Origin: a virus
Lineage: Duplodnaviria; Heunggongvirae; Uroviricota; Caudoviricetes; Autographiviridae
Direction: 5' to 3' (one strand)
Length of the DNA stretch: 10,867 nucleotides
Virus record (IMG/VR): IMGVR_UViG_2609459797_000001
Below, piece by piece: positions 1-10,867 of this stretch; within the stretch, counting starts at the first letter, position 1; each line of letters opens with the position of its first letter. Position numbers and translations under genes: made by a program. The notes beneath the pieces were generated by a model, which saw nothing but the letters and a program-made list of their open reading frames with translations, made no database searches and had not been told where the DNA came from.

Positions 1-377
1 TGGACGAACAGTGGGGCTATGTCGGGGCTAAATCGCGCCAGCGCTGGCTGTTTTACGCGTATGACAGGCTCCGGAAGACGGTTGTTGCGCACGTATTCGG
101 TGAACGCACTATGGCGACGCTGGGGCGTCTTATGAGCCTGCTGTCACCCTTTGACGTGGTGATATGGATGACGGATGGCTGGCCGCTGTATGAATCCCGC
201 CTGAAGGGAAAGCTGCACGTAATCAGCAAGCGATATACGCAGCGAATTGAGCGGCATAACCTGAATCTGAGGCAGCACCTGGCACGGCTGGGACGGAAGT
301 CGCTGTCGTTCTCAAAATCGGTGGAGCTGCATGACAAAGTCATCGGGCATTATCTGAACATAAAACACTATCAATAA
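1..377 (+). CDS. insB: IS1 transposase InsB, C-terminal part (5' end lies outside the window)
   Basis: Open frame from the window start to TAA at 375-377; the listed ORF 111..377 is only the part after an internal Met. Sequence recognised as IS1 InsB from memory. Confidence 0.85.
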
Positions 378-392
378 GTTGGAGTCATTACC
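1..392 (+). mobile_element. IS1 insertion sequence, 3' portion ending at its terminal inverted repeat; truncated by the window edge
   Basis: Frame 3..377 translates to the InsB C-terminal sequence ([21 protein letters not shown]...[15 protein letters not shown]). GTTGGAGTCATTACC at 378-392 matches the IS1 terminal repeat as I remember it, 15 nt after the insB stop. Confidence 0.9.
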
Positions 393-457
393 TGGTGTTC
401 CTTACCTTGCAGCCTTCGGAATAGCAAAATCTATATTAGAGCATTTAGGGATAAAAG

Positions 458-1534
458 ATGAATTTGACAGCAATGAATCTTGTGAATGCGATAGCCAACC
501 TGCCCAAAAACAGGCAGTTTGATTATGTGAATGAAAGTAATGCTGGGAAGATTGTCGTCGACTCGATTAAGTCACCACAAGGCCCGATACGCTTTAAGCG
601 TTTTAACCCGACCAAAGGTGAGACGCTTAAAGATGCAAAAATAGACAGCATCTCTAGCCAGATGCTTTGGCGTTTGGCTAACGCAATTCAAGAGGATGCA
701 CCTATCAATTTAGATAGAGTGCTTGGTGCAAGCTATAACTCCCGTTCCGTTATTGAGAGTTTACTTGCACACACACCGCAATTTTATTGGTGTAAACTCG
801 ACCGTTTAGAAGTTATTAACACTAAACAGACGGTAAAGAAAGGCCACAAGCATCTTGTGTACTTACCCAATTCGCCACACGAAAACGGTAAGCTCTCTGA
901 ATACAAAGCTAATATTGTAATATCAGAGATGAAAACAGAAGTTGTTTATCAAAGTGTTGATCTGGAAACAATCCGTCCAGTTGAAGGTATGTCGATTGAA
1001 GAATCAAGAAGGCATGCACAAATCCAGATTGCTTTAGTAAAAATAGGCCACCACTTAGGCTATAGAACATGGGTGGCAGCTAATGATCGTGGACTTAAAT
1101 ATAACGGGAAAGTCATTGCTCAAATGGATGGGGTAATTGATAGTCTCTCAAATGAAAAGGTATTAAGCTCGTACAGCGAGGCCATTGACGGTGCAAAACT
1201 AATAGATTGCATTTGGTTTAGAAATGGAAAATTAATGCCCGCCGTGATGGAAATTGAGCACAGCACTGGGATTAAAAGCGGATTAATCCGTATGAAGAAT
1301 TTTTGTGACTATGCCCCACGGCTTCAAGATATCAGATGGACAATCGTAGCCCCCGATGAATATCGAGCTAAAGTCATTGAATTTGCGAATATGCCGCAAT
1401 TCCGAGAGCTGGACACAAAATTCTTCCCGTACTCAGCAGTCGAAGAGTTGTATTCTCTTTGTGAACGACGCAAACCACAAGGAATTACAGACCAATTCCT
1501 TAATGCGTTTATGGAAAACTGCGTAACCCACTGA
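458..1534 (+). CDS. Hypothetical protein (358 aa), compositionally foreign; possible nuclease or defence-type protein (inference only)
   Basis: ATG at 458 preceded by AGGGA about 7 nt upstream; uninterrupted 358-codon frame to TGA at 1532-1534. Hand counts on 60-nt samples give about 37-48% GC against a clearly GC-richer surrounding. Convergent with the minus-strand operon. Weak D...E-x-E pattern (LIDCIWF...AVMEIEHS) that could be a PD-(D/E)XK-like core; not verified. Confidence 0.7.
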   Translation: MNLTAMNLVNAIANLPKNRQFDYVNESNAGKIVVDSIKSPQGPIRFKRFNPTKGETLKDAKIDSISSQMLWRLANAIQEDAPINLDRVLGASYNSRSVIESLLAHTPQFYWCKLDRLEVINTKQTVKKGHKHLVYLPNSPHENGKLSEYKANIVISEMKTEVVYQSVDLETIRPVEGMSIEESRRHAQIQIALVKIGHHLGYRTWVAANDRGLKYNGKVIAQMDGVIDSLSNEKVLSSYSEAIDGAKLIDCIWFRNGKLMPAVMEIEHSTGIKSGLIRMKNFCDYAPRLQDIRWTIVAPDEYRAKVIEFANMPQFRELDTKFFPYSAVEELYSLCERRKPQGITDQFLNAFMENCVTH

Positions 1535-1554
1535 CTAGAAGTTAAACATCTTTT

Positions 1555-1576
1555 GTGCCGGGTGCAACCCCGGCAC
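1555..1576. terminator. GC-rich hairpin between convergent genes (8-bp stem GTGCCGGG/CCCGGCAC, 6-nt loop); possible bidirectional terminator, non-canonical
   Basis: Perfect inverted repeat at 1555-1562 and 1569-1576, lying between the stop of the 458-1534 gene and the stop of the 1589-2017 gene. A T-run precedes rather than follows the stem on the plus strand, so there is no classical U-tract in either direction. Confidence 0.3.
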
Positions 1577-1588
1577 AGCCAGAACTCA

Positions 1589-2017
1589 TCACCCCGGATA
1601 AACAACGCCCAGCCCTTGGTTTTGTTGGCGGTAGCTCGCCAGCATCGCGTTCATGTTGCCAGGCGACAGCCCACACAAACGCCCAGCATGGTAGCCACCC
1701 TCAGCAGCGTTAGCAGAACGATGCACCACAGCACGCACGCGCCCGGTTCGGTGGCAATGATCCAGCACGGCAGACGCAAGGCGCAGCGGTTTACCTGTCA
1801 CCGCACAGCGTCGGTATTGATAATTCCACAGGAAGATACGGACAGCGGCCACATCAGCGCGGCGCAACTCCAGCCGACCGGAACCATTCAACAGGAAGCG
1901 ATACACATCTTCGAATACAGCAGCATTTGTAATCCGTTCAGCCAACGGCATGTTGCCGAGGTGTTCCAGATAGTCCCGCATCGCTTTTCTTAGTAGTTGG
2001 TCTGTCCGTGTAACCAT
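1589..2017 (-). CDS. Endonuclease VII-like (phage T4 gp49 family) junction-resolving nuclease
   Basis: Motif LDHCHRTGRVRAVV...ANAAEG matches the remembered endonuclease VII core (HLDHDHE...GKVRGLLCNLCNAAEG). ATG at 2017 with GGAG about 10 nt upstream; last gene of the minus-strand operon. Confidence 0.75.
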   Translation of the reverse strand: MVTRTDQLLRKAMRDYLEHLGNMPLAERITNAAVFEDVYRFLLNGSGRLELRRADVAAVRIFLWNYQYRRCAVTGKPLRLASAVLDHCHRTGRVRAVVHRSANAAEGGYHAGRLCGLSPGNMNAMLASYRQQNQGLGVVYPG

Positions 2018-2289
2018 GATTCAAAGTCTCCATTGTCAGACGCAGCCCGCTTGCAGGCTTCGTATTCTTCGCACTGGCGTTGGCAAACCAGAACATAAAG
2101 TTCATCAGCCATCGCATTAACGCGTTCGTCACTGATACCGTTGCGGCGCATTAGCCCCAGCAGCTTACGAAATTCAGCTTCCAGCTCAGGCTCTCCGGTA
2201 TCCATTACCCACTGTTTCAGGTCAGCGAGTGCGCCAGTCATTGGCGGCGGCTCGATGTACCGCCACCTTAATTTAATCGTGGTTATCAT
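1990..2289 (-). CDS. Hypothetical small phage protein (start uncertain; 2289, 2241 and the TTG at 2337 are alternatives)
   Basis: Minus-strand frame ending TAA at 1990-1992. The listed start at 2337 is a TTG and overlaps the upstream gene by 65 nt; the ATG at 2289 overlaps the upstream stop by 17 nt, which is more typical of coupled genes. Confidence 0.45.
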   Translation of the reverse strand: MITTIKLRWRYIEPPPMTGALADLKQWVMDTGEPELEAEFRKLLGLMRRNGISDERVNAMADELYVLVCQRQCEEYEACKRAASDNGDFESWLHGQTNY

Positions 2290-2698
2290 CTTCTTTATTC
2301 TCTCTGTAAGCCGGGTGCATTGCCCGGTATTGCTCAATGGTCAAACCCTCGCTGGCCGCTGTAAGCCGTTCCTTTTGCTTACCCGCCAATCGCAAGGCGC
2401 TGTCTCTCCAGCAGAGCAGAAAGAAGACGGTCAGCACCTGCTTACTCAAGCCATCCAGAAGATCACCAAGTCCTTGCTCCAGAAGACAGGCACGCCATGC
2501 AGCGGCATGCTCCGTCATAGCGCCGACTATCGGGACAGGTGCGCCAAGCATCGTCGCAAGTTGGCTCATAACACTATTAGCATCGCCCGGATGCAGTCGG
2601 GGCATAGTCATGCGGCCAGCCTGCGCCAACAGTTCAGCGTACCGCTGGCGACGTGGGTCATCATCTGCCAGCGCTCTAATCGGCTTTTCATCAGCCAT
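2273..2698 (-). CDS. Hypothetical phage protein (141 aa)
   Basis: ATG at 2698 with GGAGG 9 nt upstream; lies 18 nt after the stop of the HNH gene; same strand and packing as its neighbours. Confidence 0.7.
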   Translation of the reverse strand: MADEKPIRALADDDPRRQRYAELLAQAGRMTMPRLHPGDANSVMSQLATMLGAPVPIVGAMTEHAAAWRACLLEQGLGDLLDGLSKQVLTVFFLLCWRDSALRLAGKQKERLTAASEGLTIEQYRAMHPAYRENKEDDNHD

Positions 2699-2716
2699 TA
2701 ATGGAACCTCCGGGGA

Positions 2717-3226
2717 TTAGGCAGCCTGCAACAAATCGGCTGGTGTTGAGGGATGGTATCTGGCTTTAGCTTTCAGGTACGCAGCACGTGCCGCCGCTTC
2801 GGATGTGAATAAGCCAAGGTGATGGCGTACACCGTCAACGCGTATGTAAGCCTCCCATTTGCTACAGCCTTTATTCCAGCTATATCCCCTTGCCTTGCGT
2901 CGGTTCTGGTCGTTTTCCCGCTGCGTAACCAAACGCAGATTGCATAGGCGGTTGTCGTCACGGATACCGTTGATGTGATCGATCTGCTTACCGTGAGGAA
3001 TAGCGCCATGCGCAAGAATCCACGCCACGCGATGGGCTTTTAGCTGGTACTGCTTGCCATCAAGTCGCAGGGCAACTTGACGATAGCCATCAGCTCGCCG
3101 GGTGGAGTCAGCATAGGAGCCAGCCTTAACCCGGCGTCGGTTAGCTTTATGGCACAAGCGACCTGTAACCGGGTCATACAGGAAAAGGGATCGCAGCAGC
3201 TCAGGGGCGTAAGCATCATTAACCAT
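2717..3226 (-). CDS. HNH homing-endonuclease-like protein with C-terminal AP2-type DNA-binding domain
   Basis: HNH_3-type motif AHRVAWILAHG...IDHINGIRDDNRLCNLRLVTQREN, followed by an AP2-like segment GYSWNKGCSKWEAYIRVDGVRHHLGLFTSEAAARAAYLKA. ATG at 3226 with GGAGGGG upstream. Confidence 0.85.
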   Translation of the reverse strand: MVNDAYAPELLRSLFLYDPVTGRLCHKANRRRVKAGSYADSTRRADGYRQVALRLDGKQYQLKAHRVAWILAHGAIPHGKQIDHINGIRDDNRLCNLRLVTQRENDQNRRKARGYSWNKGCSKWEAYIRVDGVRHHLGLFTSEAAARAAYLKAKARYHPSTPADLLQAA

Positions 3227-3242
3227 GACTCAGCCCCTCCAG

Positions 3243-4238
3243 TTACGCAGATTGTCGGAAATTGATAACGCAATCAGGACGACGCAGCCCAACGTTGAAC
3301 AGGCGATATGAGTCCATCACCATCGTCATTTCGCGTTCATCATCCCACTGGCGATTAATGACGCTCTGCGCTTCGACCGTCAACAGTACCGAGGAAGGTT
3401 TAAACAGCGTCGCCCTCGTCAGCGCTTCCTCTGCGGTAACGTCATAATCAGCGCCCAGTTCATGCCCGGTAATGGCTTCCTGCGGGTAACTATTCAGCTC
3501 GATAACTCGCACCCCAGCGACATAGCCAACACGACGCCATGCGTAATCGTTGCCACTATCCCGGCTGTAACGGACGTTCATCAGCTTCTTATGTTCCATC
3601 AGGATGCTGAACCAAGCCGGGTCGATAAGCAGTACCAACTCCGCCACCGGAATATCTTTCTCAGTCAGGAATCGATTAACAGCAGCTTTAATAGCGCTAA
3701 CCAGCTCATTCGCGGCGTCTTCTTCGCTCCCCGCTGTCAGGTCGAGCGAGACAACGTTATCCGTCAACGGGTTAAACGTTGGTTGCAGTGTCGGCGGTGG
3801 TACAAAGTCAGTCGCTTTGATTAGCTGGATGGCGTGCGCTTCGTCGTAGAATTTAGCGTGAGCAGTACCGATATTGCGGCTCAGCTCTGCGCGAAAGGTG
3901 GGTGCAGTCCAGTCATCCTGATAGTCAATGGGGATGCGGATATAGCTCAGCGTATCCACAGAGATAACCAACTTGTCCGACTTAACGGCGGTAGGCTCCA
4001 GCGATTGCCCTGCTGTTCTGCCCTTCACCTCCAGATCACCACTCAGGCGATCAATGCGGTATTGGTTGCTGGCTTTCAGCGGCCTGTATGTAGACAGCCT
4101 CTCGGCCAGAAATACGGATTTGGACTCTAAACGGGTCTGGACATCCCGGTCATAAGCCTCGATGTGAATATCATTGTCGGATTCCACCCCGCCATAATGT
4201 GGGCGAAACAGATCGGGACTGTACGAAGTATCAGCCAT
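3243..4238 (-). CDS. Hypothetical 331-aa protein; motif pattern resembles HK97-fold major capsid protein of the T7 gp10 type (unverified)
   Basis: ATG at 4238 with GGAG 8-9 nt upstream. Ungapped, position-matched motif resemblance to T7 gp10 as I remember it: VLIYDIED versus IRIPIDYQDD near residue 100; ALTK...VP...DRVFYCDPDSYSAIL versus RFLTEKDIPVAELVLLIDPAWFSIL near 185-215; NVMGFEVVEVP versus YVAGVRVIELN near 240; KYAMG..GLRPE versus SYRLFNVGLRRPD near the C-terminus. Recall-based, needs profile confirmation. Confidence 0.75.
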   Translation of the reverse strand: MADTSYSPDLFRPHYGGVESDNDIHIEAYDRDVQTRLESKSVFLAERLSTYRPLKASNQYRIDRLSGDLEVKGRTAGQSLEPTAVKSDKLVISVDTLSYIRIPIDYQDDWTAPTFRAELSRNIGTAHAKFYDEAHAIQLIKATDFVPPPTLQPTFNPLTDNVVSLDLTAGSEEDAANELVSAIKAAVNRFLTEKDIPVAELVLLIDPAWFSILMEHKKLMNVRYSRDSGNDYAWRRVGYVAGVRVIELNSYPQEAITGHELGADYDVTAEEALTRATLFKPSSVLLTVEAQSVINRQWDDEREMTMVMDSYRLFNVGLRRPDCVINFRQSA

Positions 4239-4435
4239 AACAAAACTCCTACATATGTTGATGAAGCCCGCGCCATCGTCATGGCACAGACGTGCGTAAT
4301 CCTCCCGCCGAGGCAGGATTCAGAACGGTATCGATTAAAGGGATGAGGTGCCCCGGAATGGGCGTTTTGAGGCCAGAGCTGGCGCGGTTCTCAGGGGTTA
4401 GTGCGCGTAAAGTAAGGCGAAAGTATTACCTTGCA

Positions 4436-4849
4436 TTAGTGCGCACTCATACGCGCCATGTTCAACACCTTCCGCACAGAGGTTTCAGACACACCAACCT
4501 TGCTTGCAATGTAACGATTTTTCTGACCTTTTGCAGAGCGATCGATAATGTCAGCGCGTATCGCCTCAGTGATCACCTTGCGGGGTCTGGCTCGGTTCTT
4601 CTCGTGCCGTTCACGTTCGCGCAGCCTTTCGGCCAACTTCGGCGGTAGTACAGGGGAAAGCCCACGGCTAACGCCAGATGTGCGGGTGCCGGATGTGGCA
4701 GACCGGGCAACGATATAAACCGCTTCGTCTGGATTGAAAACGTGCTGCACACGCTCAGGGTAAATGTGGTCGCATCTACCCAACGGCAAGGCGAAATCCG
4801 GGCGCACGTCAGCGACACGCTCCACAGCATGGAAATTACAGGTACTCAT
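4436..4849 (-). CDS. Hypothetical protein with C-terminal helix-turn-helix and an N-terminal Cys/His cluster
   Basis: ATG at 4849 with GAGG about 7 nt upstream. C-terminus IIDRSAKGQKNRYIASKVGVSETSVRKVLN looks like a resolvase/sigma-region-4-type HTH; N-terminus has C-x2-H...C-x-H (MSTCNFH...RCDH). Confidence 0.65.
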   Translation of the reverse strand: MSTCNFHAVERVADVRPDFALPLGRCDHIYPERVQHVFNPDEAVYIVARSATSGTRTSGVSRGLSPVLPPKLAERLRERERHEKNRARPRKVITEAIRADIIDRSAKGQKNRYIASKVGVSETSVRKVLNMARMSAH

Positions 4850-4988
4850 TACGAACCTCGGTTAATTAAAAACAGGCTTTCAGATGCCGCGCAGAATGCG
4901 GCTTGCGGGGACTCATGCGCATAGATTGGTGTGGTAGTACCGGGTCGGTGCGCACTCGGTCTTGCAGAGCGCATTCCACCGTTGGGCG

Positions 4989-5684
4989 TTAGCGGCCAGC
5001 ACGTTTGCCAGCGGAGCGCTGCGCAACCAGAGCGCGGTATTGTTCATCGTACTGGCGATGGCCGGGGCCATACCCTGATTGCTGCGCCCACTGCGAAAGC
5101 TGGTCATACGCTGCTATAAACTCAGCATGAGACATTCCGACAGGTTGCGCGGTAGACTGGCCGTATGGGTTCCCCTGTGATGGGACATAACCAGTCGCAG
5201 TGCCTGCGGACATCCTCTCTTGCAGGTACTGAACCGCCCGCTGCATCTGCGCAGGGTCGCCAGACATAACCATTCGTTCAAGGGTTGATTGCGTCCCACT
5301 GTCGAGCGTGCCAGCGTACTGTAACATCGCGTCAACTGTTCCCTGTCCGAGCTGGCTTTCAATGGACTGGTGAAACTGCCCCATCAATCCTTGCAGCTCA
5401 GCGGTATACTCGACAGCAGTTCCGTCCATCAGAGGGATAGTATCGCCCACCTGCGCCCCGGCGCTGTCAGCGTTCTGGTCTTGCTGATTAGCAATATTGC
5501 TATTATTCCATTGGCCGCCATCATTACCGTTAACGGGTTGGGTACGGAGGAAATCAGCATCAGCAGGCGCAGAGCTAAAGCGGGATGCCCCATTGTCAGC
5601 TCCAACAGGTGCAGCCATGTATGGCGATTGCTGCGATGCAGCATCAGCGCCAGCAGCGAGATAAGGGTTTTGATTGTCAGCCAT
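4989..5684 (-). CDS. Q/N/G/A-rich low-complexity protein (231 aa), function unknown
   Basis: ATG at 5684 with AGAGG upstream, 2 nt after the stop of the preceding gene. Strongly biased composition (for example NGNDGGQWNNSNIANQQDQN) with a helical-looking C-terminal half. Confidence 0.6.
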   Translation of the reverse strand: MADNQNPYLAAGADAASQQSPYMAAPVGADNGASRFSSAPADADFLRTQPVNGNDGGQWNNSNIANQQDQNADSAGAQVGDTIPLMDGTAVEYTAELQGLMGQFHQSIESQLGQGTVDAMLQYAGTLDSGTQSTLERMVMSGDPAQMQRAVQYLQERMSAGTATGYVPSQGNPYGQSTAQPVGMSHAEFIAAYDQLSQWAQQSGYGPGHRQYDEQYRALVAQRSAGKRAGR

Positions 5685-5686
5685 AA

Positions 5687-5926
5687 TTATGCAACCTCTT
5701 GTGATGTAACTCGGCGGTGCGCCAGTTCAAGTAAAAGCATGTGCGCATGTACGCATCGGGCAGGAATCATCTTCTGTCCGTGGTACGCTTTGCCGAGATC
5801 TTGTCTGTCGATCTGGTACACACGAGCCAAGTCGATTTGACGAAGATTCAAGGCGTCAGCAATGAATTTCAGTTGTTGCCCGCAATCAGCCGCGCGGCGT
5901 GGCTCCATTAAAATGATGGTGCTCAT
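5687..5926 (-). CDS. Small XRE/Cro-like helix-turn-helix protein (start placed at the internal ATG with a good RBS)
   Basis: Segment LKFIADALNLRQIDLARVYQIDRQDLGKAYHGQKMIP has the XRE-type HTH pattern. The ATG at 5926 has GAGG about 9 nt upstream, whereas the listed start at 5968 overlaps the upstream gene. Confidence 0.55.
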   Translation of the reverse strand: MSTIILMEPRRAADCGQQLKFIADALNLRQIDLARVYQIDRQDLGKAYHGQKMIPARCVHAHMLLLELAHRRVTSQEVA

Positions 5927-5940
5927 GAAATAATCCTCAG

Positions 5941-6171
5941 TTAAATAAGCCCGTGACGGCGTAGCCAACGGCGCTCGCCAGCGGAGCCACGCGGACGCTG
6001 GCGGCGTCCACGGGCGGTGACTGGCTGTTCGGGTGCGGCCTCACTTCGGAGATTCTGCGTCAGGATGTCCCACCCCTGCGGCTTAACAGGGGCGTAGCCT
6101 TCCCGCATCTCGTCAAGGTTGACGTATTGAGTCGGGTCAATTGCAGGGTGAATGATGTCGTTATCTTCCAT
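5941..6171 (-). CDS. Hypothetical small protein with Arg-rich C-terminus
   Basis: The ATG at 6169-6171 overlaps the upstream TGA stop (6171-6173) by one base in a TGATG arrangement, indicating translational coupling; stop TAA at 5941-5943. The listed start at 6186 would overlap by 16 nt. Confidence 0.45.
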   Translation of the reverse strand: MEDNDIIHPAIDPTQYVNLDEMREGYAPVKPQGWDILTQNLRSEAAPEQPVTARGRRQRPRGSAGERRWLRRHGLI

Positions 6172-6749
6172 CACTCGGCTCCCCATTTCGCATTAACATT
6201 TTCCAGAATGTCACCATACGGCCAGCGGCTCTTTAAGCAGCGGTTAACGAAAGCGATCACCTCTGGCAGAACGTCCAGCTTTTGGGCGATGTCAGCGACA
6301 GGCCAGCCAAAGCGCTCTAACTTGTGGATTTCATCCAAATCAGAAGGCACCAGCTTGCGCATGGCTTTCGCTTTCTCCGGCTTCACTTTAACGGCTTTCG
6401 GCGCAGGGTGAGTGTGGGCGTTCTGGAATCTGGAATGAGCGATAGCCAGCACGGTTTCAGGGCGAATCAGCGTATCGCGGGCAATCATAAATTCCGTATC
6501 ACGGTGCAGCTTGCCGGGCTTATAGCGGCTGCGGATGGCGTTGTATTCAGCCAGAGTAATATCAGCATCGTCTTTCCACTGTTCGGCCAAGTCATCGACA
6601 TAGACGCCACGGATTACACGGTCGATGTCGCTCGGGCTGAAACCAGTGCGAGAAGAGATTTCATCGTTGTTCAGGTGGTCAACAATACTCAGTTTATTGA
6701 TAAGCTGAATATCGCGCAGGGTCAGGGTTGCGTTACTGGTGGTTGTCAT
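6171..6749 (-). CDS. Hypothetical protein (about 192 aa) with HTH-like segments; possible DNA-binding protein
   Basis: The ATG at 6749 has GGAGAG 9-10 nt upstream; the listed start at 6767 is a TTG. HTH-like stretches near both termini (ATLTLRDIQLINKLSIVDHL and VADIAQKLDVLPEVIAFV). Confidence 0.65.
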   Translation of the reverse strand: MTTTSNATLTLRDIQLINKLSIVDHLNNDEISSRTGFSPSDIDRVIRGVYVDDLAEQWKDDADITLAEYNAIRSRYKPGKLHRDTEFMIARDTLIRPETVLAIAHSRFQNAHTHPAPKAVKVKPEKAKAMRKLVPSDLDEIHKLERFGWPVADIAQKLDVLPEVIAFVNRCLKSRWPYGDILENVNAKWGAE

Positions 6750-6924
6750 ACTGGAACTCTCCATCAAAGTTAATCGAATCTTCTACAAGGTCTTTAATCA
6801 AAGCGAGGCTGGATGCGGTATGGATACCACCGCCGCGCCGGGCGTTGTCGTACATGGCTTTGGCCTGCTTCTGGTACTTCTCAGGCAGCGAGTTAAACCA
6901 CGCTCTAAACTGGTGCGGCGTCAT
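6733..6924 (-). CDS. Hypothetical small protein (63 aa)
   Basis: ATG at 6922-6924 overlaps the upstream TGA (6921-6923) in an ATGA-type junction; GGAGG about 11 nt upstream. Confidence 0.5.
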   Translation of the reverse strand: MTPHQFRAWFNSLPEKYQKQAKAMYDNARRGGGIHTASSLALIKDLVEDSINFDGEFQYDNHQ

Positions 6925-7130
6925 TCGTTGTCATCCTCCGGGAACACGTTATTGAAAGATGCGTCCGGCGCATCGGCGGCATTTTGCTTGAGGAAGTTCA
7001 CGCAGGATGACAGCTCGGCAGCAGCCATGCGGGATTCTCCAGCGGAGTCCTCTTTCAGGCGGCGGGTCAGCGCCTCCAGCAACAGGCACCGCATATCCCA
7101 TGTCCCAGCTTCAAACTCGGTTTTGGTCAT
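6921..7130 (-). CDS. Hypothetical small protein (69 aa)
   Basis: ATG at 7128-7130 overlaps the upstream TAA (7130-7132) in a TAATG junction; same operon and strand. Confidence 0.5.
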   Translation of the reverse strand: MTKTEFEAGTWDMRCLLLEALTRRLKEDSAGESRMAAAELSSCVNFLKQNAADAPDASFNNVFPEDDNE

Positions 7131-7561
7131 TAATGGTTATCTCCAACTGGTAACAGGCCAAGCGCCCGGATGTGCTGTATCACTTCTTGATGCACGGGCT
7201 TCGGCAGAAATAAACGGCGGGCAATGGCGGCGTAAACTTCATCAGGTGTCTTGCGCACTGGATGCACTCGACCATTAAAAACCCGCTCAGACAGGCGGAC
7301 AGCTTTCCAGCAACGTGAGCCATCCGGCCTTTTCATGCGGTTCAGCACAGCGGCCAGACACTCCCACGGTTCGCAATCATTCAAAAGGCAATATCGCTCC
7401 AGCGGCGTGGACACCTCGCGAAGGATGGCCTCCCGGTTAAGGGTCTTGCGATGACGTTCGGCCAACCCATCAAATGAATACCCGTTCAGGGCGTAAGCGA
7501 GCTGCGCATTAATCAGGGCGTCAGAACGCCCCGCGCGTTGCTGCACGGTTTCATCAGGCAT
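7130..7561 (-). CDS. Hypothetical phage protein (143 aa)
   Basis: ATG at 7561 with GGAG 8 nt upstream; 43 nt downstream of the helicase stop. Confidence 0.7.
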   Translation of the reverse strand: MPDETVQQRAGRSDALINAQLAYALNGYSFDGLAERHRKTLNREAILREVSTPLERYCLLNDCEPWECLAAVLNRMKRPDGSRCWKAVRLSERVFNGRVHPVRKTPDEVYAAIARRLFLPKPVHQEVIQHIRALGLLPVGDNH

Positions 7562-7604
7562 GTGGATTCTCCAGAGAGGAAATTAAACAGGCGAGCCAGT
7601 TAGC

Positions 7605-9449
7605 TCAGAGGAAGCGGGAGATGTAACCCCAGTTAGCATTGTGGGGCTGGTACAACGCCGCCAAATCATCAGGCGCATCCCCCAGCGCCAACGATGACCA
7701 GAGTATGAAAGCACGGGCAGGTTGACCATCGCGCCCGGCACGGCCAACCATTTGCACCAAATCGGGCAGGTCTTCCGGAACATAAGTGACAATTACGTTA
7801 CGCACGTCAGAAATATCGGCTCCGAGGCCAAAGGCTTTGGTCGCCACCAGAACAGCGCCGGGCGTGCTGGAGAACCACTCTGCGTTGGCGTGCCGCTGAT
7901 CGCGGCTCAGTCGCTCAACGTCAGAATGATAAGGCCGGGCACGGTCTCCCAGTTCGTTGAGATACGCATACAGCATCTTTATGCTGTCCACCATCACCAA
8001 TGTCTTTTCATTCTCCGGCAGCGCATTGACCAGACCAACGGCAGCCCGGCGCGGAGTTACGCATTGCTGAGCAGGAATAAGCTGGATGTTTTCACGGGCA
8101 GCACTGGCGCGGTAGGTGAGGAACTCGCCACGACAGCCAAGCTCTTTCATCAAGCCAGACTCATCACCTTTTCGCAGGGTCGCAGTAAACGCGCACCGCT
8201 GAGCATCCGGGAAGGCATTTTGCAGGGTGTGCTTCATTGCAGGGAAAGCGTCCCGGAACTCCCATTCATCAACGGTGTGCACCTCGTCAATGATAAATCT
8301 GTCCGCACCAGCGGCCATCAGCGCGGCAAGCACCTGACTACCCGGCACCAGATGTTCAGGCGAAACGACTGCGACGCGGAAAGCACCAGCAGCCAACCCC
8401 GCAAGTTGCTGCGCATTACGCCGCTTCGGTAGTTTATCGCCAAATGCCACAGCGTGAACGCCAGCCTCCCTTAACTGCTGTAGCACCTGCTGCTTGATAG
8501 TGTTCGTCGGCACGACAATAACGGTCATACCTTCGCCAGCATCAGACTCAAATTGCAGGGCATAGGTGAATGCAGCCGTCTTTCCGTACCCGGTCGGCAG
8601 TACGGCCAACATATCGCGGTCACGGGCAAACACAGCGGCGGCCACGTCGAGTTGACCGGGTCGCCAGTCATGACCATCTGGCGGCGGTAACGGTACGAAT
8701 GCCGGGCGGTCGCATTGCTCCAGCTCACGGAACCTGTACGGCGCTGTAACCAGCGGCGGGATGGACGGCGGCAGGTCAGCGCCGCCAACGTCACAGTGTT
8801 GGTTCTTCGTGTTGAAATTGTCCTTAGTGGATTTCAGCTCACTGCCCCATAGCTGGTGAAACTCCGGGCTATCCCCGAGGGTGTCAAAGTCAGCGTGGCG
8901 CATCGCCTCCAGCTTGCTCATGCCACGATTGATGCGGCGGATGGTCTTCTCATCACAAATCAGAAACTCGCGACAGGCTTTAAGAAAGGCGTTTTGCCCC
9001 GTGGTCGCTTCCGGGATGGCGTGCTCACGCGGTTTCAATGCGGCATCGTCTACGCGAACACCGGGGAAATCTGGTGGCAGCGGCTCGGCGTACCGGGCAG
9101 GCTTTTTGTTTAGCCACATCACCAGCTCAGCGCGGCGGCAGTGGATTGCATCGCCCGGCTGGATAATCTGGCGCAACCCTGCATCAGCGCGGCGGGCGTG
9201 TGTCTTGCGTCCGATTCCGTTAGCCTCTTTCCATTCTCGGAACGACATAACAGAATCGTCAGCGTTAAAGTAAAACTCTTGTGACTCCGTATTAAACGCA
9301 GCCTGTATGGGTTTACGCTTTACAGGACATTGCTTGTTACGCGATACAACTATCTTATCCGCAACCAGTTGCTGAGCATCCGCAGGCGCAGTGTTCAGCG
9401 GTTCGGCGTCAGCGGCCAGCGCAAGCAGGCGGTTCAATCTCGTGGGCAT
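7605..9449 (-). CDS. SF2 DExH/RecQ-like helicase (614 aa) with a roughly 270-aa non-helicase N-terminal extension
   Basis: Helicase motifs in order: LPTGYGKT (motif I), VVPTNT (Ia), DEVH (II), FTAT (III), VGRAGRDGQ (VI). ATG at 9449 with GGAG 9 nt upstream. Confidence 0.9.
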   Translation of the reverse strand: MPTRLNRLLALAADAEPLNTAPADAQQLVADKIVVSRNKQCPVKRKPIQAAFNTESQEFYFNADDSVMSFREWKEANGIGRKTHARRADAGLRQIIQPGDAIHCRRAELVMWLNKKPARYAEPLPPDFPGVRVDDAALKPREHAIPEATTGQNAFLKACREFLICDEKTIRRINRGMSKLEAMRHADFDTLGDSPEFHQLWGSELKSTKDNFNTKNQHCDVGGADLPPSIPPLVTAPYRFRELEQCDRPAFVPLPPPDGHDWRPGQLDVAAAVFARDRDMLAVLPTGYGKTAAFTYALQFESDAGEGMTVIVVPTNTIKQQVLQQLREAGVHAVAFGDKLPKRRNAQQLAGLAAGAFRVAVVSPEHLVPGSQVLAALMAAGADRFIIDEVHTVDEWEFRDAFPAMKHTLQNAFPDAQRCAFTATLRKGDESGLMKELGCRGEFLTYRASAARENIQLIPAQQCVTPRRAAVGLVNALPENEKTLVMVDSIKMLYAYLNELGDRARPYHSDVERLSRDQRHANAEWFSSTPGAVLVATKAFGLGADISDVRNVIVTYVPEDLPDLVQMVGRAGRDGQPARAFILWSSLALGDAPDDLAALYQPHNANWGYISRFL

Positions 9450-9472
9450 GTTTGAAATCTCCAGTCAAATAA

Positions 9473-9775
9473 TCAAGCAGCTTTCCGCCAGATGTATCGG
9501 CGGTGGACACCTCTCTTTTTGGTCACGCCGTGCAGCTTTCGCCATGCGCGGAAGGTCATAACGGAACCATCGGGATTGTAGTAATACACACGCAGACGTT
9601 TGTGGAATGCTCCCTGTACCGTCTTGTCCGTGACAGCGCAGCGCACGTAATGCGGGATAACAGTTTCACTCCAGACCAGTTGTTGCGGCGTGGCGCTAAT
9701 CGTGCTTAACGCTTCGGCGGCAGCGGTTGCCAGCTCCAGTTGCAGGCGTGAATTCATGTGGCGTAAATCAACCAT
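9473..9775 (-). CDS. Small protein (100 aa) paralogous to the N-terminal ~90 residues of the downstream helicase
   Basis: ATG at 9775 with GGAG about 8 nt upstream. Ungapped alignment to helicase residues ~3-92: QQLV, C-x-V, K, Q-AF, Y-N-D-SVM-FR-W, G, K, RR all in register. Confidence 0.7.
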   Translation of the reverse strand: MVDLRHMNSRLQLELATAAAEALSTISATPQQLVWSETVIPHYVRCAVTDKTVQGAFHKRLRVYYYNPDGSVMTFRAWRKLHGVTKKRGVHRRYIWRKAA

Positions 9776-9818
9776 GATGTAAGCTCCAGAAATTAAGGTG
9801 AGTTTAGAACGGGGCGCA

Positions 9819-9875
9819 GGACGGAAGCGCCGGAAGTGTGGCGGTGGCGGTTGAGGCGGCGTCGGTGTTCCGTCC
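9819..9875. other. GC-rich interrupted hairpin (stem GGACGGAA/TTCCGTCC around a 41-nt GGCGG-repeat loop) in the operon leader
   Basis: Perfect 8-bp inverted repeat at 9819-9826 and 9868-9875, with an inner CGCCG/CGGCG pair and three GGCGG repeats in the loop; lies 45-100 nt upstream of the first start codon of the minus-strand operon. Confidence 0.3.
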
Positions 9876-10123
9876 CTCTTTAGTAGTGATCTTCATCCAG
9901 TGATTTGGATTTAACTCAGGCGCAACAGGCAATGCAGCGGGATAGCGCGAGGGCGGGCTTGTGGTCTCATCTTCCCACAGTAGTAACCCTTATCGGTCGG
10001 TAGCCTTCCCAATATAGTAGCTTTCAAGTCAAGAATTCTATCCGGGGCTTGCCTTCCCTTTGTAGTCACTTTCATCCACGCATACCCCGGACAGCCCTTG
10101 TGGCGTCTGGTGCGACAGGCAAT
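9876..10123. repeat. Iteron-like imperfect direct repeats in the noncoding region upstream of the helicase operon
   Basis: CTCTTTAGTAGTGATCTTCATCCA (9876-9899) versus CCCTTTGTAGTCACTTTCATCCA (10056-10078); GGCGCAACAGGCAAT (9919-9933) versus GGTGCGACAGGCAAT (10109-10123); CTTGTGG twice; CAATATAG twice; TAGTAG-type hexamers four times. Confidence 0.4.
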
Positions 10124-10252
10124 TTCAGGTAGGTGTATTAGGGATGTGAAATTGGTTCTTGGCGTAGCTCTTTCCTACAATATAGACACTTTTAAATTTA
10201 TTAATAAATGCAGTCAGTTAAACGGTTATCTTTATTACCTATAACTTTCACA

Positions 10253-10274
10253 GATCAATAGATTAAAATTGATC
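10253..10274. promoter_or_regulatory. Palindromic operator-like site GATCAAT-N8-ATTGATC containing two GATC (Dam) sites
   Basis: Perfect 7-bp inverted repeat with an 8-bp AT-rich spacer, located just upstream of the promoter-like hexamers. Confidence 0.35.
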
Positions 10275-10287
10275 GGAATTATCAGCT

Positions 10288-10325
10288 TTAAATTTCTTGA
10301 CAGCTATTTGTATAATGGTTTTAAG
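10288..10325 (+). promoter_or_regulatory. Rightward sigma70-like promoter candidate (overlapping alternatives)
   Basis: Perfect TATAAT at 10311-10316 with TTAAAT 17 bp upstream (10288-10293); alternatively perfect TTGACA at 10297-10302 with TTTAAG 17 bp downstream (10320-10325). AT-rich upstream region. Confidence 0.35.
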
Positions 10326-10329
10326 AAGT

Positions 10330-10470
10330 TGTATCGGAGTGAGCGACTGGCAGTGAGCGTAGCGAACGGTAAGCCAGTCGGCGAAGAACGAAGAGTATGA
10401 GATGACTTGTCATCGAATACGATGAGTGATTGAGCGCTACGAACGAAGATACGCTGTATAACAGTTAGAA
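10330..10470 (+). other. Hairpin-rich untranslated segment downstream of the promoter candidate; possible small RNA or leader, interrupted by IS1
   Basis: No ORF longer than a few codons. 8-bp stem CGACTGGC/GCCAGTCG (10344-10351 and 10373-10380); two mutually exclusive hairpins sharing TCATC (GATGA-CTTG-TCATC at 10401-10414 and CATCG-AATA-CGATG at 10411-10424); GAACGAAGA repeated at 10386-10394 and 10441-10449. Confidence 0.2.
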
Positions 10471-10527
10471 CAGTTAACTAGCTGAATATGAATAATACAT
10501 TTAATATTTATCTGGATTAGTATTTTC

Positions 10528-10867
10528 GGTGATGCTGCCAACTTACTGATTTAGTGTATGATGGTGTTTTTGAGGTGCTCCAGTGGCTTCTGTTTCTATC
10601 AGCTGTCCCTCCTGTTCAGCTACTGACGGGGTGGTGCGTAACGGCAAAAGCACCGCCGGACATCAGCGCTATCTCTGCTCTCACTGCCGTAAAACATGGC
10701 AACTGCAGTTCACTTACACCGCTTCTCAACCCGGTACGCACCAGAAAATCATTGATATGGCCATGAATGGCGTTGGATGCCGGGCAACAGCCCGCATTAT
10801 GGGCGTTGGCCTCAACACGATTTTACGTCACTTAAAAAACTCAGGCCGCAGTCGGTAACCTCGCGCA
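10528..10867 (+). mobile_element. IS1 insertion sequence, 5' portion (left terminal repeat and insA); continues beyond the window
   Basis: GGTGATGCTGCCAACTTACTGAT at 10528 onward matches the IS1 end repeat as I remember it; insA starts 55 nt inside, as in IS1. Same orientation as the IS1 fragment at 1-392. Confidence 0.9.
10583..10858 (+). CDS. insA: IS1 InsA (91 aa)
   Basis: Translation [43 protein letters not shown]...LKNSGRSR recognised as IS1 InsA from memory; complete ORF with stop at 10856-10858. Confidence 0.9.

Follow-up and report, generated by a model that had tools for sequence, protein, structure and literature searches.

The stretch of DNA analysed here (the window, 10,867 nt) is the IMG/VR virus record IMGVR_UViG_2609459797_000001, which begins and ends within partial copies of the insertion sequence (IS) IS1. 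Our data make it likely that these are two separate IS1A-type insertions of the same orientation in a phage-satellite-like island of about 15 kb, located at the tRNA gene leuX of Escherichia coli 2-011-08_S4_C3, and that the window is the contig lying between them. Read in reverse, the window is identical over its full length to the complete contig JNND01000041.1 (10,867 bp, GCA_000700525.1) of the whole-genome shotgun draft assembly of this isolate. The link was made through a rare variant of a 231-residue protein encoded at 4989-5684, which its source lists under E. coli 2-011-08_S4_C3. Nothing in this arrangement is new in kind: it consists of ordinary IS1 insertions in a genomic island and of a contig that breaks in a repeat.

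Both IS1 pieces were aligned to a complete 768-bp copy (L023, 4358-5125). The alignment bore out the original prediction of two directly oriented copies with inner ends at 392 and 10528, about 10.1 kb apart; both pieces are on the + strand and the spacer between them measures 10,135 bp (393-10527). Compared with IS1A and IS1E of E. coli K-12, the two pieces show a single mismatch in 732 aligned bases, at IS1 position 444 (G in the left copy, T in the K-12 elements), and both terminal repeats of about 23 bp are identical to those of the K-12 elements. The gene layout of IS1 is also present, spread over the two pieces, with insA, the A6C site and insB' in the -1 frame. IS1 transposes by means of the frameshift transposase InsAB' and duplicates 8-9 bp of its target. 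The presence of paired IS1 halves at the two window ends is not a matter of chance.

The right IS1 came in by simple insertion: it is flanked by an 8-bp duplication of its own and still has its native leuX surroundings. At its inner junction the window reads ...GGATTA GTATTTTC/ggtgatgc (here and below a slash marks a junction or insertion point). The original prediction had proposed a comparison with IS1-free relatives, and this comparison yielded empty sites for both insertions. On the right side, four such relatives (L030, L031, L034 and L035) are 99.3-99.9% identical to the right part of the window; their alignments all stop at 10527, after which they run ...GTATTTTC/TATTTATTCTCCC towards a resolvase gene. 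The resolvase variant that the closest relatives have (P0161) is encoded in the same assembly on a second contig, JNND01000119.1 (127,880 bp; L050). Read in the orientation of the window, that contig opens with IS1 positions 452-768, continues through attacc/GTATTTTC TATTTATTCTCCC (contig-end string IS1/GTATTTTCTATTTATTC) into the remainder of the non-coding region, and then carries the resolvase gene, the tRNA-Leu(CAA) gene leuX, ahr, yjgR, lptG, lptF, pepA, holC and valS, the names from yjgR to valS being our reading of the listed Pfam domains. The same 8 bp, GTATTTTC, thus stand on both sides of the right IS1, and the inner and outer flanks, when aligned to the IS1-free relative L034, share exactly 8 nt (2586-2593). 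The outer-right junction was found again in three Logan runs (SRR1186764, ERR11172772 and SRR36307534), and the right inner junction was found independently in a contig of the last of these (L036). The right IS1 splits a longer non-coding stretch that reaches to the resolvase gene and is continued on JNND01000119.1; being placed in AT-rich non-coding DNA, the insertion is probably neutral.

These observations bear directly on the proposal, made in the original prediction, that the segment is a composite transposon of the Tn9 type. Pairs of IS1 are known to transpose jointly, as in Tn9, and the layout does conform to that type, with a direct IS1 pair around 10.1 kb; the behaviour of a transposon is not borne out. 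Had the IS1-segment-IS1 block been transposed as a unit into its present place, foreign DNA would be seen outside it and the duplication would be found only at its outer ends. What is found outside the right IS1 is the colinear island, leading into leuX and the core genes ahr and valS, and the right copy has GTATTTTC on both of its own sides, which is the kind of individual duplication that the original prediction had itself named as speaking against joint movement. Nor did the unit appear in more than one genomic context: no second context was detected in 72,556 plasmid records or in 5,426 complete genomes of E. coli, and all samples that carry the junctions share the same junction sequences, the leuX context being seen only for the outer-right flank. 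In the complete E. coli genomes there was no near-identical block at all (best match, 88.9% identity over 82% of the window), and the exact junction formed by the IS1 right end and TGGTGTTCC, the sequence that follows the left IS1, had no match in genome_contigs, viral_contigs or metagenome_contigs, three collections that do not include the source. A plasmid origin was rejected as well; the sole match in the plasmid collection was partial (85%) and was to a chromosome-sized record. We therefore consider it very improbable that the block arrived as a composite transposon, and a composite-transposon layout alone is no evidence of composite transposition.

Since only half of each IS1 copy is visible, the window alone cannot distinguish two copies from one copy on a circle. 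A circle of 10,135 bp plus one IS1, either excised or as a small replicon, or an artefact of a collapsed repeat, would account for ends that are complementary IS1 halves lacking 36 bp between them and that are breaks made by the assembler. However, the same assembly holds two different right-end junctions, attacc/TGGTGTTCC in the window and attacc/GTATTTTC on JNND01000119.1. These distinct junctions both lie on DNA of the island, which is therefore bordered by no fewer than two copies of IS1, and a circle with one IS1 is not the main form. Moreover, the /GTATTTTC junction pairs with the IS1 junction at 10528 through the 8-bp duplication, and the interior of the window contains neither an integrase gene nor attachment (att) sites. 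A single-IS1 origin of the window is accordingly hardly credible, and a minority circular form beside the chromosomal one is possible.

The window ends are breaks made by the assembler inside IS1, a multicopy repeat that is carried by 4,987 of the 5,426 complete E. coli genomes. Within this one assembly, IS1 is broken at three positions, 340 and 377 at the window ends and 452 at the end of JNND01000119.1, so that positions 1-340 and 377-768 are visible in the window and 452-768 on the second contig, with the 36 bp of positions 341-376 as the gap between the two window ends. These 36 bp are identical in the K-12 IS1A and IS1E and the L023 copies, with no polymorphism among the IS1 copies compared, and the internal IS1 copies of L023 are untrimmed; an origin of breaks 340 and 377 in IS1 polymorphism or vector trimming is thus unsupported. 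Contigs of other assemblies begin at the same IS1 base as the window, and such contig starts were found in 143 collection blocks. We dropped the idea of a break hotspot, as this number may be near chance given the size of the collection. Three of the same-base contigs shown have accessions in the same GCA_0007xxxxx range as this assembly, and an enrichment of that range is suggestive. The case has some value as a warning that IS halves at the ends of a sequence record can mark an assembly boundary and not a biological edge.

The left IS1 is inserted in a gene for a C5-cytosine DNA methyltransferase (the methylase), within codons 337-340, which belong to motif X, GNGVP (G336-N-G-V-P340). The intact methylase of the relatives has 379 residues (PF00145) and the motifs FSGSG, PPCPDFS, ENV, QDRER and GNGVP; the window has no intact methyltransferase with motifs I, IV, VI, VIII and X, as only codons 337-379 are left. 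Judged from the sequence, the left junction destroys the methyltransferase, and does so in a motif of the catalytic domain. Six relatives (L040-L044 and L047) have the empty site, which reads ...GTTGGTAA/TGGTGTTCCTTACC, and their alignments with the window all begin at 393. One of them, the metagenome contig L041, differs from window positions 393-9611 by 2 mismatches in 9,219 positions and extends to the left into the intact methylase gene and then an integrase gene, as do L040, L042-L044 and L047. The left inner junction was found independently in an ENA metagenome contig (L033). Positions 1-17 of L033 are Nextera transposase adapter sequence (ATGTGTATAAGAGACAG), and it is because of this adapter at its start that L033 stops at window position 10147.

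The original prediction had also held that the insertions cut off whatever lay to the right of the non-coding region and to the left of an AT-rich gene. On the right it was the assembler that cut the contig, and the DNA continues beyond; on the left, IS1 does interrupt the methylase gene, and the AT-rich gene is that of an NmeDI-like restriction endonuclease, the partner of the interrupted methylase, as in a type II restriction-modification pair.

Two accounts of the left copy were weighed. In the first it is a simple insertion flanked by a 9-bp duplication, TGGTGTTCC, with methylase codons 1-340 and the integrase gene directly beyond. The outer junction would then read ...GTTGGTAATGGTGTTCC/GGTGATGCTGCC (IS1 left end GGTGATGCTGCC). 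Simple insertion is the default behaviour of IS1, the finding that the right copy is such an insertion supports the same for the left, and the left junction divides the empty site cleanly. Against this stand the truncated methylase products it predicts, none of which is on record, although the lineage is known from two or more NCBI assemblies as well as from several Logan runs and from an ENA metagenome. For this look-up, 19 truncated methylase-IS1 fusions (residues 1-340 plus an IS1 tail) were predicted from six methylase variants with 8-, 9- or 10-bp duplications, not in every combination, and from two variants with an inverted IS1 and a 9-bp duplication; none had an exact match in a collection of 15 billion proteins. 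The approach can work, as a comparable fusion from another sample is on record (P0129, encoded on L063, with an IS1-like end after codon 323). Likewise, P0165, the integrase variant that the closest relatives have, is recorded for 8 contigs, none of which belongs to this assembly or to the other samples with IS1, and the variant P0172 is not found in this assembly. A third observation comes from L060 (Logan DRR741614), a contig with the intact methylase allele that ends exactly 30 nt past the left junction point, at the equivalent of window position 422. This end fits a k=31 graph in which a path IS1/TGGTGTTCC joins the intact allele, with no branch where the putative 9-bp duplication would end; L060 is from a different sample and gives a weak hint only.

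In the second account, the left junction is the endpoint of an adjacent deletion, of the kind that IS1 promotes, or the product of recombination with another IS1, so that the integrase gene, the 5' part of the methylase gene and the adjoining att site have been removed or displaced and the island remnant is immobilised. The absence of truncated methylase products and of P0165 fits this account, as does L060, but all of this support is indirect, the exact-match look-ups are fragile, and no junction partner has been seen. Fusion look-ups, P0165 and L060 taken together lead us to give deletion or recombination about an even chance and to regard simple insertion on the left as a tentative proposition, somewhat short of that.

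We return to the reading as two separate insertions in the leuX island, against which several points weigh. The right end of the window is joined to JNND01000119.1 across IS1 by two arguments, the shared 8-bp duplication and the colinearity with relatives, and not by a read that spans IS1. No outer flank was found for the left IS1, which makes the completeness of this copy and the nature of its neighbouring DNA matters of deduction. Exact protein look-ups require an identical sequence and the same start-codon call, such that one substitution hides a gene; an integrase called at 384 residues, as in L042 and L043, would be hidden in the same way. Finally, the polar effect that IS1 would have on the restriction gene, discussed below, is textbook knowledge.

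In the course of events that we propose, the right copy arrived by plain transposition, generating the 8-bp duplication in an island that is colinear on both sides, and the left copy has its inner junction in motif X of the methylase, 65 bp upstream of the intact restriction gene. The DNA once located to the left of this junction (the 5' part of the methylase gene, the integrase gene and the distal att copy beside it) may, with roughly even probability, no longer be adjacent. As the right IS1 is flanked by a duplication of its own, the pair was built in place. Direct copies are a possible substrate for recombination, as the original prediction pointed out: they could recombine and delete 10,903 bp as a circle, or act jointly as an 11.7-kb composite. 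We found no evidence that recombination or joint transposition of this pair has occurred.

Table 1. Features of the window, with coordinates in window positions.
Feature	Position	Strand	Remarks
Left IS1, 3' part	1..392	+	IS1 positions 377-768; PF03400 DDE_Tnp_IS1
insB, last 124 codons	3-377	+	Within left IS1 piece
Right terminal inverted repeat	about 370-392		Left IS1 piece
TGGTGTTCC, first 9 bp after left IS1	393..401		Putative inner duplication copy if simple insertion
C5-cytosine DNA methyltransferase, 3' remnant	393..522	+	Last base of codon 337 to stop
Restriction-endonuclease-like gene, 358 aa, intact	458..1534	+	NmeDI_C domain, PF27126
Endonuclease VII-like gene	1589..2017	-	phrog_423, 7.5e-16
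HNH endonuclease gene	2717..3226	-	phrog_99, 3.4e-56; PF13392
Major capsid protein gene	3243..4238	-	phrog_267, 1.1e-69
231-aa protein, rare variant	4989..5684	-	One relative in its 90% cluster named 'scaffolding protein' by source
DEAD/DEAH-box helicase gene	7605..9449	-	PF00270, PF00271; phrog_16, 5e-30
Non-coding region with imperfect direct repeats	9776..10527		Island
GTATTTTC, inner copy of 8-bp target duplication	10520..10527		Right IS1
Right IS1, 5' part	10528..10867	+	IS1 positions 1-340
Left terminal repeat	10528-10550		Right IS1 piece
insA, complete	10583-10858	+	Right IS1 piece
A6C slippery (frameshift) site	10834-10840		Right IS1 piece

The restriction gene next to the left IS1 begins 65 bp beyond IS1 and before the end of the methylase gene, with which it overlaps. 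Its 358-residue product is identical in 10 IS-free loci (L010-L019), and from its sequence it is apparently an orphaned restriction gene in a viable and repeatedly sampled lineage. IS1 is classically polar, and the left insertion therefore probably uncouples this gene from upstream transcription. In a simple scan, which is weak evidence, the + strand showed no sigma-70-like promoter in the interval from IS1 to the gene. Because the strain and its relatives are viable and have been sampled repeatedly, and because IS1 is polar, we infer that the restriction gene is silent.

Other interruptions of the methylase gene were encountered. A search of methylase homologues for a truncated form led to an unrelated insertion in Enterobacter hormaechei, where an IS3-family-like end follows methylase codon 338 (L039, 10960-11009). 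In the Logan run ERR11438063 an IS1-like right end follows codon 323 (L063, 2470-2501), and in two further Logan runs IS ends, which we take to be of the IS5 type, lie at about 570 nt (near codon 191) and about 315 nt (near codon 105) of the gene (L073, 2078-2103; L074, 1822-1995). The methylase gene is thus broken by IS in several independent lineages, with the restriction gene intact at least in the window; the contigs that yielded these cases are ones that happen to break within this gene, a biased sampling that supports no claim of enrichment. A bolder idea would combine these cases with the IS1 pair. According to it, the two direct IS1 copies would have made the capsid-encoding core of the satellite (helicase, capsid/scaffold, nucleases and orphaned restriction gene) an 11.7-kb composite or translocatable unit, and the repeated knock-outs of the methylase gene by IS1, IS5 and IS3-family-like elements would reflect selection for silencing restriction. 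We consider this improbable; if true, the satellite core would move or be lost through IS1 transposition or recombination and not by means of its own integrase and a helper phage.

Among known systems, single IS1 insertions and adjacent deletions differ in nothing essential from what is seen here, with an 8-bp duplication on the right and a gene-disrupting insertion or deletion endpoint on the left. The IS1B/IS1C pair around argF in the CP4-6 prophage of K-12, which we take to be Tn2901, is alike in having direct 768-bp copies that flank passenger genes in an acquired element, at a spacing of 10,703 bp as compared with 10,135 bp in the window. The argF unit is mobile as a whole; in contrast to that unit, the right IS1 of the present pair has its own duplication. 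Tn9 (IS1-cat-IS1) similarly brackets a passenger segment with direct IS1 copies and has the same options for recombination and deletion. It measures about 2.6 kb, is borne by plasmids and phages in many contexts and has its duplications at the outer ends, whereas the block described here measures 11.7 kb, was seen in one chromosomal context and has, on the right, a duplication around the individual IS1.

The interior of the window is the core of a mobile island of which mosaic variants are common in E. coli, Enterobacter, Klebsiella and Citrobacter. A complete relative, in E. coli N9 (L002, 1483-16288), has a length of about 14.8 kb and lies between the two copies of a repeat that comprises 31 nt or more from the 3' end of a tRNA-Leu gene. 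Its gene order is tyrosine integrase, variable slot, endonuclease VII-like protein, HNH endonuclease, major capsid protein, small open reading frames, DEAD/DEAH helicase, about 1.4 kb of non-coding DNA, serine recombinase and tRNA-Leu. Between the integrase and endonuclease VII genes, the slot is occupied in the present variant by the methylase gene and the overlapping NmeDI-like gene, and in other variants by a pair of the Eco47II type, by a ThsB-like TIR gene or by an AbiTii gene. The capsid protein is 56% identical to that of podophages of about 42 kb, namely Escherichia phage Lidtsur and its relatives. When the 16 open reading frames of the window were compared with PHROGs, the capsid and HNH proteins were recognised, ten had no match, and no terminase, portal or protease was found. 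A scan of the window against Rfam gave no match.

From these features the island looks like an uncharacterised type of phage satellite that has a capsid of the podophage type, a possible scaffold gene and a defence slot with exchangeable contents. It resembles the P4-like satellites, PICI (phage-inducible chromosomal islands) and the capsid-forming PICI (cfPICI) in being integrated at a tRNA gene and in having an integrase, a helicase, an HNH endonuclease, a capsid protein and a variable defence slot (restriction-modification, TIR or Abi genes). cfPICI carry a set of HNH, small and large terminase, portal, protease, capsid and connector genes. The present island differs in that no terminase or portal was recognised, in its Lidtsur-like capsid and in having both a tyrosine and a serine recombinase, and no named family was assigned to it. 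In the literature we found no description of a satellite family with a T7-like capsid that matches the island, and nothing usable on the strain or on Tn2901. Both the island type and the IS-interrupted methylase with its intact restriction gene are by-products of this work that are possibly worth separate attention.

The island is itself a mosaic. Positions 393-4322 of the window are closest to L040 and L041, and positions 4989-10527 are closest to L030 and L031, the left part of which differs (92% identity). Two unrelated types of resolvase, of 191 and 209 residues, are swapped among otherwise close relatives. Upstream of the helicase operon, at positions 9971-10078, a motif like CTTCCC-N4-6-TAGTAGCTTTCA recurs several times in imperfect direct repeats that are spaced 34-48 bp apart; to judge from their arrangement, these repeats could be iterons or operator sites.

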